Source of the DNA: Escherichia phage vB_EcoM_FJ1
Length of the DNA: 64,000 nt
Direction: 5' to 3' (one strand)
Sequence record: MZ170040.1
The first letter of the stretch is position 1, and each line of letters starts with the position of its first letter. The position numbers and the translations under genes were made by a program. The notes below the pieces were generated by a model that was not told where the DNA came from, ran no database searches, and worked only from the letters and a program-made list of their open reading frames with translations. Of the stretch, positions 45,384 through 46,743 are shown piece by piece.

Positions 45384-45400
45384 AACTTTATGCAATCTTT

Positions 45401-45431
45401 GGAAAATAAAAAAGGACTCCCGAAGGAGTCC
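45401..45431 (-). terminator. strong intrinsic terminator
   Basis: Minus strand GGACTCC-UUCG-GGAGTCC followed by TTTTTTATTTT. Confidence 0.7.
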
Positions 45432-45436
45432 TCAAC

Positions 45437-45655
45437 TTATGCTTTCTGCTTACCAAAACGAGAAGCATCATCTCGAAGAACCGCACGTGCTCGGCGCATG
45501 ATCTTCTCAACAGTTTGATTGATACGAGAGTTCGACCCACGCTTGTAGCCAGCGCGTTTAGAATCACCAACTTTCTTTTCAACTGCTTTCTTTGCTTTAG
45601 CTTGTTTTGCCATTATAAATTCTCTTTTAAATGAAAATGCAGGACTTATTGGCAT
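45437..45655 (-). CDS. small highly basic protein (alternative start at 45613 gives 58 aa)
   Basis: ATG ORF, Lys/Arg-rich (MAKQAKAKKAVEKK...); start ambiguous between two ATGs. Confidence 0.5.
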   Translation of the reverse strand: MPISPAFSFKREFIMAKQAKAKKAVEKKVGDSKRAGYKRGSNSRINQTVEKIMRRARAVLRDDASRFGKQKA

Positions 45656-46011
45656 TGCCTGCGCAAGCCCTCAAGGGGAACATAGGTTTTTGGATATTTA
45701 ACGACCAGGATAACCATAAACCCGTCATCATACCTTATAGCTCTTATCTGTTGCACACCGTTAGCTTAAAGGTTCCGGGTTCGATTTCTCGAGGATAAGA
45801 TATATACTGATGGATATATAGGCCTTGAGGCGTACTCCCGATTGGCCATCACCTCGGGGTAGCATGCACTTGCCGCTATAAGAATAACATTCAAGAGGTA
45901 CACCGTAAAACTGCCGGGGTCTTAAAACTATAATGATTCGCAAATCATTAATCAGACAGTTCGACGGCTCCTCGATTTTAGCTCACACTAAGGCAGTGAA
46001 TCTCCAGTAAA

Positions 46012-46260
46012 TTACTTCAGTGTTACCACAAAGTGACGAACTGCTTTTCGTGCAGCAGAAGCCAGAGGCTTAGCATATTTAAGTTCATCTTTTTCCTGAA
46101 GCTCAGCAGCTAATGCAGTTTGAGCAGGATTCAGATGTTTGAAATAACGCAGGATTTCAAGAGCTTCGGCTTCAACATCAATAGATGCGCCATAGTTTTC
46201 GTGACCATTATTCCATGCGTTTCGTTGCAGTTCAAGAGCGTGTTGTAATTGTTTAATCAT
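46012..46260 (-). CDS. rIII: lysis inhibition accessory protein rIII
   Basis: 82 aa; sequence recognised as T4 rIII. Confidence 0.9.
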   Translation of the reverse strand: MIKQLQHALELQRNAWNNGHENYGASIDVEAEALEILRYFKHLNPAQTALAAELQEKDELKYAKPLASAARKAVRHFVVTLK

Positions 46261-46407
46261 TTAAAAATTCTCGTTAGAGATTAAAACTCGGTAGTCACGT
46301 TCTTCTGAATTTCATCTTCTTTCGACAGATCTCTCAGTTGTAGACTACCACATAGAATTGTTCGGTTAACTTATTATTCCGACACCCAATTCATATTATT
46401 ATTTATA

Positions 46408-46743
46408 TCACTTATAAAGACACGGAATAGCTTTATAGTGACAGGTAACAAATTTTTGTTTAATTTCTTTTGGCTGCTTAAGACCCAGAGCTACAAAAGG
46501 ATGCGGAACATTTCGAATTTGACCAACTGGGAGAGAAGTCAAATCACCAACTTCGCAGAAACCTTCAGGAACATCAGGACCGACAGAGTGAATTACACAC
46601 AGTTCAGGAACTTCACCTTGAACACGTTTACCGATAATAAGTCCTGATTCTGTAACTTCTTCATCACCGGCTTGTGCAGGTTCAGAAACTAAAATAACAT
46701 ATTCACCGACAGCACGAATTGGTAGCTGTTGTACTTCAGACAT
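46408..46743 (-). CDS. 31: co-chaperonin gp31 (GroES analogue for capsid folding)
   Basis: 111 aa; sequence recognised as T4 gp31. Confidence 0.9.

Follow-up and report, generated by a model that had tools for sequence, protein, structure and literature searches.

Between genes rIII and 30.9 of Escherichia phage vB_EcoM_FJ1 there is very probably a functional structured RNA, encoded on the minus strand. We analysed a 64,000-nucleotide (nt) stretch of this genome (sequence record MZ170040.1), called the window below, and the domain in question, which we refer to as the core, occupies 149 nt of it (45734-45882, minus strand). The core has a defined fold and defined boundaries, is present in a single copy at a fixed locus in a subset of T4-like phages, and is absent from T4, T2, T6 and RB69. 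It probably represents an RNA family that has not been described before. Taken as a whole, the evidence leads us to prefer, with some reserve, the explanation that the spacer between the two cistrons holds a discrete and novel RNA domain working as a self-contained accessory module. A sequence-only reading of the same DNA had proposed that this segment might encode a structured RNA; there is strong support for this in the central 149 nt, and the hairpins and the pseudoknot that flank them support it at a smaller scale.

Fold and covariation of the core RNA

The core was delimited with a covariance model, sequence alignments and RNAalifold. Read 5' to 3', it begins with CUUAUAGC GGC AAGUGCAUGC UACCCCGA GGUGAUGGCCAA UCGGGAGUA CGCCUCAAG GCC, continues with UAUAUAU CCAUCA GUAUAUA UCUUAUC C UCGAGAAAUCGA AC CCG GAACCUUUAAGCUAA CGG and ends with UGUGCAACA GAUAAGA GCUAUAAG. 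The fold comprises a closing stem, a four-way junction without linkers, seven helices, a GNRA-capped hairpin and a pair of kissing loops. Besides P1, three arms leave the junction: P2, extended by hairpin P3; P4, itself a hairpin; and P5, inside which lie P7 and the GNRA-capped hairpin P6.

The 5' strand of the closing stem P1 lies at 45875-45882 and pairs with 45734-45741, and because P1 closes the fold it sets the ends of the element. Its sequence is not conserved: seven of its eight pairs show compensatory changes, and the stem ranges from 4 to 9 base pairs (bp), with UAGC/GCUA, AAAC/GUUU, AUAC/GUAU and UUGC/GCAA among its variants. The first arm (45821-45874) consists of P2 (GGC:GCC, 3 bp), the invariant joiner AAGnGCAU and hairpin P3 (UACCCCGA:UCGGGaGUA) with its 12-nt loop, L3. 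P2 has changed to GGU:ACC in a Yersinia phage. P3 is 99.6% paired, with compensatory changes in seven of its eight pairs; it is the stem that the sequence-only reading had picked out as CCCGA...TCGGG, and its strong covariation confirms that the stem is real. Hairpin P4 (UAUAUAU CCAUCA GUAUAUA, 45801-45820) is 99.5% paired. The last arm (45742-45800) contains P5 (UCUUAUC:GAUAAGA), P6 (UCGA-GAAA-UCGA) and P7 (CCG:CGG), each of them 100% paired and each with compensatory pairs, as well as the invariant segments AGCUAA and UGnGCAACA. The P6 loop is GAAA or GUAA in most sequences. Altogether 30 unpaired columns are invariant, including AAGnGCAU, AGCUAA and UGnGCAACA.

A tertiary contact ties the adjacent arms of the junction together: the P4 loop CCAUC (45809-45813) kisses GAUGG in L3 (45846-45850). 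This helix is 98.7% paired, two of its five pairs are compensatory, and none of 500 shuffles scored as high on cells and score. In the Serratia group one G-C pair has become U-A, whereas EcS1 and L058 have A-U at this place; another of the five pairs has also changed to A-U. Further contacts were considered. A second pseudoknot, between the first L3 bases GGY and the start of the P3-to-P2 joiner, is possible and statistically weak. A long-range GCAU-UGC pairing of the joiners involves positions that never vary, and the lone variant (U to A in L058) speaks against it. An 11-nt GAAA tetraloop receptor in GAUGG/CCUCAAG was ruled out, given that GAUGG is occupied by the kissing loop.

The covariance model scored 184.5 bits at the core, its only significant match in the window, and it found exactly one copy there even with the filters off. 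In the covariance-model alignment of 31 distinct sequences from at least eight genera, 95.8% of the cells were paired and 24 of the 40 pairs had changed on both sides. The observed value was reached by 0 of 500 shuffles on any of five measures, and slid registers paired in only 26-44%. In a MAFFT alignment of 16 distinct sequences, which was not fitted to the model, 94.6% of the cells could pair and 22 of the 40 pairs had changed on both sides; RNAalifold, run on an independent alignment, recovered P1 to P6 and part of P7. Every helix of the core has at least one compensatory pair. When the minus-sense sequence was folded by itself, the centroid was identical to the covariation model, and the z-score was -1.96, the plus-sense value being -0.87.

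The RNA is on the minus strand, as follows from the conserved U-G wobble at the top of P4 (kept in 28 of the 31 sequences), the GNRA loop and the minus-strand orientation of the neighbouring genes. In addition, about 4% of the cells are G-U, and on the opposite strand these would be A-C mismatches. The DNA of the core is 81-93% identical between the window and five other genera, while that of gene 31 and rIII is 66-74% identical; in the most distant phages, EcS1 and fHe-Yen9-01, identity of the core falls to 65-71%, and many of the compensatory changes come from these two. These identities, together with the 30 invariant unpaired columns, point to purifying selection on an intact core.

Distribution of the module among T4-like phages

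A BLAST search with the middle of the spacer returned about 410 phage records, with one place in each. By organism name, 161 belonged to Klebsiella, 130 to Escherichia, 27 each to Shigella and Enterobacter and 18 to Yersinia, and the remaining carriers included Salmonella, Citrobacter, Serratia, Raoultella, Erwinia and other phages; Edwardsiella phages also carry the core. Gene 30.9 was present in about 1005 records, among them 162 from Klebsiella and 547 from Escherichia. The core accompanies it in about 40% of these records and is lacking from about 60% of 30.9-bearing genomes; nearly all Klebsiella T4-like phages are carriers (161 of 162 records), as opposed to about a quarter of the Escherichia ones. 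In every annotated example, the core lay between rIII and 30.9 in sense orientation. Among 37 gene-31 neighbourhoods from IMG/VR, 20 contained one copy according to the covariance model, and a relaxed gapped pattern added only one extra genome from that database.

Outside the phages, an exact 20-mer scan of one genome per species across 185,579 bacterial and archaeal species gave no match. A metagenome scan found 14 T4-like contigs and two chance matches in coding sequence. The two chance matches (L076:2915-2934 and L077:1290-1309), which lie in apparent coding sequences, were rejected by the covariance model and served as negative controls.

The comparison with T4 and its relatives, which the sequence-only reading had proposed, revealed that T4 shares the flanks of the spacer and lacks its middle. 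The T4 spacer is 244 nt long and is without exactly the P1-to-P1 module (about 150 nt), with nothing at the site, yet the RIII and gp30.9 proteins of T4 are 100% identical to those of the window. More generally, the presence of the core differs among phages whose RIII and gp30.9 are 100% identical. The covariance model gave no match in T2, T6 or RB69. In RB69 the exact site of the core, with the same flanks, holds an unrelated cassette of about 50 nt, CUAUCACGCGUCAGAAAAAGGUUAUCUGUCUAAGUCGUGGUUGG (L086:8460-8510, minus strand), which is also present in the IMG/VR T4-type spacers L029, L031, L038 and L045; the T2 spacer, at 288 nt, has the same length as the loci with this 50-nt cassette, a comparison of length only. 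Conversely, in KpnM6E1 (Klebsiella, Jiaodavirus) and PEi26 (Edwardsiella, Kanagawavirus) the flanks differ and the middle is about 95% identical. These comparisons indicate that the central module is a presence/absence cassette. The sequence-only reading had also suggested a remnant of a deleted or mobile element. The idea of decay is not supported for an element that is intact, under purifying selection, single-copy and confined to one locus; the instinct that a cassette is involved was sound, as the absence of the module from T4 and the 50-nt insert elsewhere illustrate. Two observations on the 50-nt cassette itself may be added: its inner stem covaries (CAGA/UCUG versus CAGC/GCUG in L061), and it has GGUUAUC in common with the loop of M2, a pseudoknot of the spacer that is described below.

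Because the classical model phages T4, T2, T6 and RB69 are all without the module, this RNA has not been met experimentally. Its patchy distribution among near-identical phages may correspond to the usual pattern of host-range or counter-defence functions.

The spacer, its neighbouring genes and its other RNA modules

The region is 100% identical to Escherichia phage vB_EcoM_SP1 over 901 bp and at least 99.6% identical to many T4-like phages, and the source phage is a Tequatrovirus (T4-like). The genes cd, 31.2, 31.1, 31 (46408-46743) and rIII are followed by the gap, gene 30.9 and an intrinsic terminator, all on the minus strand. The upstream neighbour, rIII (46012-46260), was assigned to a lysis-inhibition accessory protein by phrog_1457 and annotations. 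The downstream neighbour, gene 30.9 (45437-45613, delimited by alignment of orthologues), encodes a very basic protein of 58 amino acids (phrog_1427, function unknown), for which Pfam and PDB searches found no relative and single-sequence structure prediction gave a helix-loop-helix, that is, a plain helical hairpin (predicted local distance difference test, pLDDT, 79). RIII is a binding partner of ribosomal protein S1 and prevents the nuclease RegB from being activated, and the targets of RegB include 30.7 and transcripts of the region (PMC9409239); control at the RNA level is dense around the rIII-30.9 locus.

Gene 30.9 starts at the ATG at 45613 (MAKQAK), from which eight orthologues align and on which the T4 and T2 annotations agree. 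A 72-amino-acid version (45437-45655), which is the form annotated in the T6 and U115 records, uses an ATG 42 nt upstream of the start that is conserved in eight genera; the alignments suggest that this longer annotation is probably wrong. Since 30.9 starts at 45613 and not at 45655, the rIII-to-30.9 spacer spans 398 nt (45614-46011, sense strand minus). The sequence-only reading had described a shorter gap free of open reading frames and rich in G+C. No conserved reading frame was found in the gap, and the elevated G+C content was borne out: it is 44.4% in the segment versus 36.1% in the window, only 2.4% of 356-nt windows are equally GC-rich, and the central 149 nt reach 47%. The same reading had raised the possibility of a regulatory leader for rIII. 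This can be discarded: with the genes on the minus strand, rIII comes before the segment and 30.9 after it, and the segment can only be a 3' trailer of rIII or a leader of 30.9.

Pattern and terminator scans found no sigma-70-type promoter, late promoter, MotA-type site or terminator inside the spacer. A perfect late-promoter consensus, TATAAATA (46400-46407, minus strand), lies directly after the gene 31 stop and upstream of rIII, and it was the sole match to that pattern within 45400-46450; we take its function from what is established about T4 late promoters. The terminator scan called a strong intrinsic terminator 3' of 30.9, GAGGACUCC-UUCG-GGAGUCCUU followed by a U run (45412-45433, minus strand). 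With a promoter upstream of rIII, a terminator after 30.9 and none between them, the core RNA should be made within the rIII-30.9 message. This message would start at or upstream of the late promoter, end at the terminator and include the domain.

The spacer is a string of several small conserved RNA structure modules, all of which are described here for the minus strand. Just past the rIII stop there is a small hairpin, UCAC-UGCCUUAGU-GUGA (45983-45999), assessed by eye; CGC-UACCUUAAGU-GCG, likewise judged by eye, is the same motif in other genera, where at times it stands directly 5' of the core. A UNCG-capped hairpin, UAAUGAUU-UGCG-AAUCAUUA, followed by a U-rich tract, lies 3' of rIII (45931-45950). 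The sequence-only reading had noted this stem as TAATGATT-TGCG-AATCATTA, and it was right to do so: the pairing is kept through base changes in relatives, with compensatory changes in L038 (AUCGAUU-UACG-AAUCGGU), and the hairpin is also present in T4. The terminator scan did not call it.

M2 is an H-type pseudoknot (45681-45731) in which the hairpin GACGGG...CCUGGUC is followed by the conserved linker GUUAAAUAnnnAAAA and then by a tail segment that base-pairs with the loop of the hairpin. M2 is single-copy in the window and was found in every rIII-30.9 spacer examined, including those of T4 (L002) and RB69 (L086:8400-8470). Its loop and tail covary, as in UUGGUAGU:ACUACUAA, UGUGAG:CUCACA, GAUGG:CCAUC and UUCAAGGUU:AAUCUUGGG. 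The order of M2 and the core depends on the lineage: M2 is on the 3' side in Tequatrovirus, Moonvirus, Karamvirus, EcS1 and fHe-Yen9-01, and on the 5' side in the phages of Klebsiella, Edwardsiella and Serratia. We know of no description of this structure in T4. The linker CGUUAAAUA resembles the 5' half of the pistol ribozyme, and M2 was considered as a member of that class. On inspection, P1, a covarying loop pseudoknot and the linker CGUUAAAUA were present; a P2 complement, a conserved P3 and the G-U site were missing, and the Rfam Pistol model gave no match. An open reading frame of 34 amino acids that begins at the AUGAUG of M2 is not conserved.

Closest to 30.9, a hairpin with its tail, CCCCUUGAGGG-CUUGCG (45662-45678), is near-invariant across the compared genera, with CCCUUAGGGG and CCCCUCGAGGG as its variants. 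It is kept where the surrounding sequence has diverged, and no MotA box was found there by the pattern used. In the non-Tequatrovirus phages (L003-L009), the 30.9 ribosome-binding site GGAAGA can pair with an upstream UCUCC (UUUCUCC-AAAAU-GGAAGA), at some 10-35 nt ahead of the start of 30.9. Such a pairing would, from the sequence, sequester the 30.9 ribosome-binding site in these phages, in the way established for certain T4 genes when they are read from long early transcripts. In the window and in T4, the 30.9 leader is not of this UCUCC...GGAAGA type.

Competing explanations and the meaning of the module

No family of Rfam 15 (4227 covariance models) matched the core at the gathering thresholds, and none did so at E values up to 10 with lax filters, for 1.1 kb of the region, for the 166-nt element alone or for five divergent homologues; the only Rfam matches in the area were weak and came from the terminator after 30.9. 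The sequence-only reading had called for such a search, and it leaves the core outside the known families. Full-text literature searches and targeted reading likewise found no description of the core RNA. The closest parallels are orphan bacterial and phage RNA motifs with complex folds that comparative genomics brought to light, such as the phage-associated manA and wcaG and raiA in Rfam, which also are about 150 nt long, intergenic and GC-enriched with a multi-stem junction, a GNRA loop, tertiary pairing and invariant unpaired nucleotides, and which were recognised by covariation while their function was unknown at discovery. The core differs from them in having no Rfam match and in being confined to a single locus of enterobacterial Tevenvirinae. 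T4 itself encodes rnaC and rnaD (species 1 and 2), RNAs of about 120-140 nt that occur in T-even phages, are processed from longer transcripts and have no known function. The core is likewise a phage-encoded RNA of similar size without a known function, but rnaC and rnaD lie in the tRNA cluster and have tRNA-like 3' parts, whereas the core lies at another locus. Homology was rejected: run with the filters off over the T4 tRNA, rnaC and rnaD region, the model gave a best score of 6.8 bits and no hit overlapping rnaC or rnaD.

Resemblance to host RNAs was also examined and rejected. A tRNA remnant was dismissed because the T-loop-like GGUUCGAUU is on the plus strand, which is the wrong one, and because ARAGORN found no tRNA or tmRNA gene in the 64-kb window. 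The 10-mer GUGCAACAGA (45749-45758, minus strand) is identical to positions 125-134 of Escherichia coli rnpB (L087), and GAUGGCC and UAAGAGC are also common to the core and rnpB, in a different order. The 10-mer forms a joiner plus P5 in the core and a P7 strand plus joiner in rnpB, with no Rfam match, which argues against mimicry of RNase P RNA; the identity is near chance, with an estimate of about 0.05 for rnpB alone and with 121 of 200 shuffles reaching at least 10 nt against all host RNAs tested. Matches to host 16S, 23S and 5S RNA, tRNA-Glu and RNase P RNA were at chance level only, and mimicry of or antisense pairing to any of them was rejected.

The rival that survives best is that the core is a cis-regulatory leader of 30.9, namely a riboswitch-type aptamer or a protein operator, possibly for gp30.9 itself, that controls downstream translation or stability. 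We regard this as possible but rather unlikely. In about 400 genomes the core does stand 5' of 30.9, always in one orientation, and a conserved domain with covarying helices in such a position is what the aptamer part of a riboswitch would look like. Its complex junction, variable-sequence P1 and invariant unpaired nucleotides are typical of aptamers, and in architecture, going by general knowledge, the variable P1, the multi-helix junction, the kissing loops and the conserved junction nucleotides recall the purine and lysine riboswitches. That gp30.9 is small, basic, helical and of unknown function suits an operator, and the hairpin over the ribosome-binding site in the non-Tequatrovirus leaders and the heavy RNA-level control nearby point in the same direction. 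However, no conserved expression platform was found: the spacer contains no terminator, the modules that follow P1 differ by genus, and between P1 and the 30.9 start codon there are 75 to about 190 nt of differing hairpins. The core is also set apart from the purine and lysine riboswitches by the extra branched arm on its four-way junction, by having no known ligand and by the fact that the gene downstream is kept unchanged in phages without the RNA, as in core-less T4. The position of M2 on either side of the core and the many 30.9-bearing genomes that dispense with it also weigh against a leader.

Three features support a self-contained domain rather than a classical 30.9 riboswitch: P1 closes the whole fold, the module is cleanly absent or replaced while the neighbouring proteins are identical, and it stands on either side of M2 and at varying distances from the 30.9 start. 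The domain would fold on its own and act as an accessory module that is either released or persists as a stable RNA; its invariant junction nucleotides would bind a conserved partner, which might be a small ligand or a protein of host or phage origin, and it would not be a switch wired to the 30.9 start site. That the module is autonomous, rather than a cis-regulator of 30.9, we hold only tentatively, at a little under even chances. Several points tell against the explanation that we prefer. The transcription, processing and stability of the core are all inferred from sequence. The core always lies directly upstream of 30.9, which among syntenic genomes fits a cis-acting leader equally well. 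The thermodynamic z-score is modest; the sequences all come from one phage subfamily, in which several compensatory changes are inherited rather than independent, and the divergent lineages EcS1 and fHe-Yen9-01 supply much of the covariation signal. In addition, the identity between genera could partly reflect recent recombination beside constraint.

It is improbable that the core is a self-cleaving ribozyme, or serves RNA processing in another way, so as to split a polycistronic message into its rIII and 30.9 parts. Small ribozymes are common in phage genomes, and such a role would suit a fold that is compact, built of several helices, held by a tertiary contact, rich in invariant junction nucleotides and placed between two cistrons. 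Nevertheless, the relaxed Rfam search described above matched no ribozyme, and no Rfam model of a small self-cleaving ribozyme (hammerhead, twister, twister-sister, pistol, hatchet, HDV-like, hairpin or glmS) matched the core or its flanks; at 149 nt the core exceeds most small self-cleaving classes, and T4 and many relatives manage without it.

A feature of the DNA without RNA function, such as a recombination cassette or a mobile-element remnant, is very improbable. The sharp-bordered presence or absence among near-identical phages would fit it, and T4-type genomes are known to shuffle small cassettes, among them PeSLs, in which a sigma-70-like promoter (TTTACW-N17-TAYWAT) is joined to one stem-loop and which are repeated through the genome (PMC4122927). 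Like a PeSL, the core is a small non-coding cassette at sites of insertion, deletion and replacement among close T4-type phages; unlike a PeSL, it has no such promoter, nor any promoter-like hexamers within the element, is single-copy and has a large covarying fold. A DNA-level role is also at odds with compensatory changes that keep G-U pairs on one strand only, with the GNRA loop, the covarying kissing loop and the invariant unpaired nucleotides, and with the restriction to one locus, no copies having been found elsewhere in the phage and bacterial genomes or metagenomes scanned. Finally, the 60-amino-acid open reading frame at 45761-45943, which exists and appears in several GenBank records as a hypothetical protein, is scarcely credible as a gene: as the sequence-only reading had suspected, it is unconvincing, with a TTG start, no PHROG family, substitutions that follow base pairs and not codons, and a frame that in relatives is interrupted by stops and by indels of 1 and 2 nt, which leave the RNA helices preserved (homologues differ in length by 1, 3 and 9 nt, and in Serratia phage 4S the homologous segment has no stop-free stretch longer than 27 amino acids).

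The novelty that we propose is that of an RNA family and is not a claim about mechanism. RNAs of this complexity have usually proved to be ribozymes, riboswitches or specific protein-binding RNAs, and for this reason a new class of such RNA is a lead to new biochemistry. The T-even phages are the best-studied bacterial viruses, and yet a complex conserved fold that is absent from the model phages is carried by relatives among the Klebsiella, Enterobacter, Citrobacter, Yersinia, Serratia and Edwardsiella phages, and several of these serve in therapy or have been proposed for it. The phages in which RIII and gp30.9 are identical and the module is present, absent or replaced are natural near-isogenic controls, so that its function is directly testable. 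It is an unlikely outcome, though one of consequence, that the core founds a functional class of its own, be it of ribozymes or of aptamers. If it were an aptamer of this kind, it might sense or soak up a metabolite of the host or an immune signalling nucleotide, or it might act as a decoy that diverts a host protein of RNA binding or defence. The core would then be an accessory counter-defence or host-takeover RNA of T-even-type phages, missed for decades since T4, T2, T6 and RB69 are without it.

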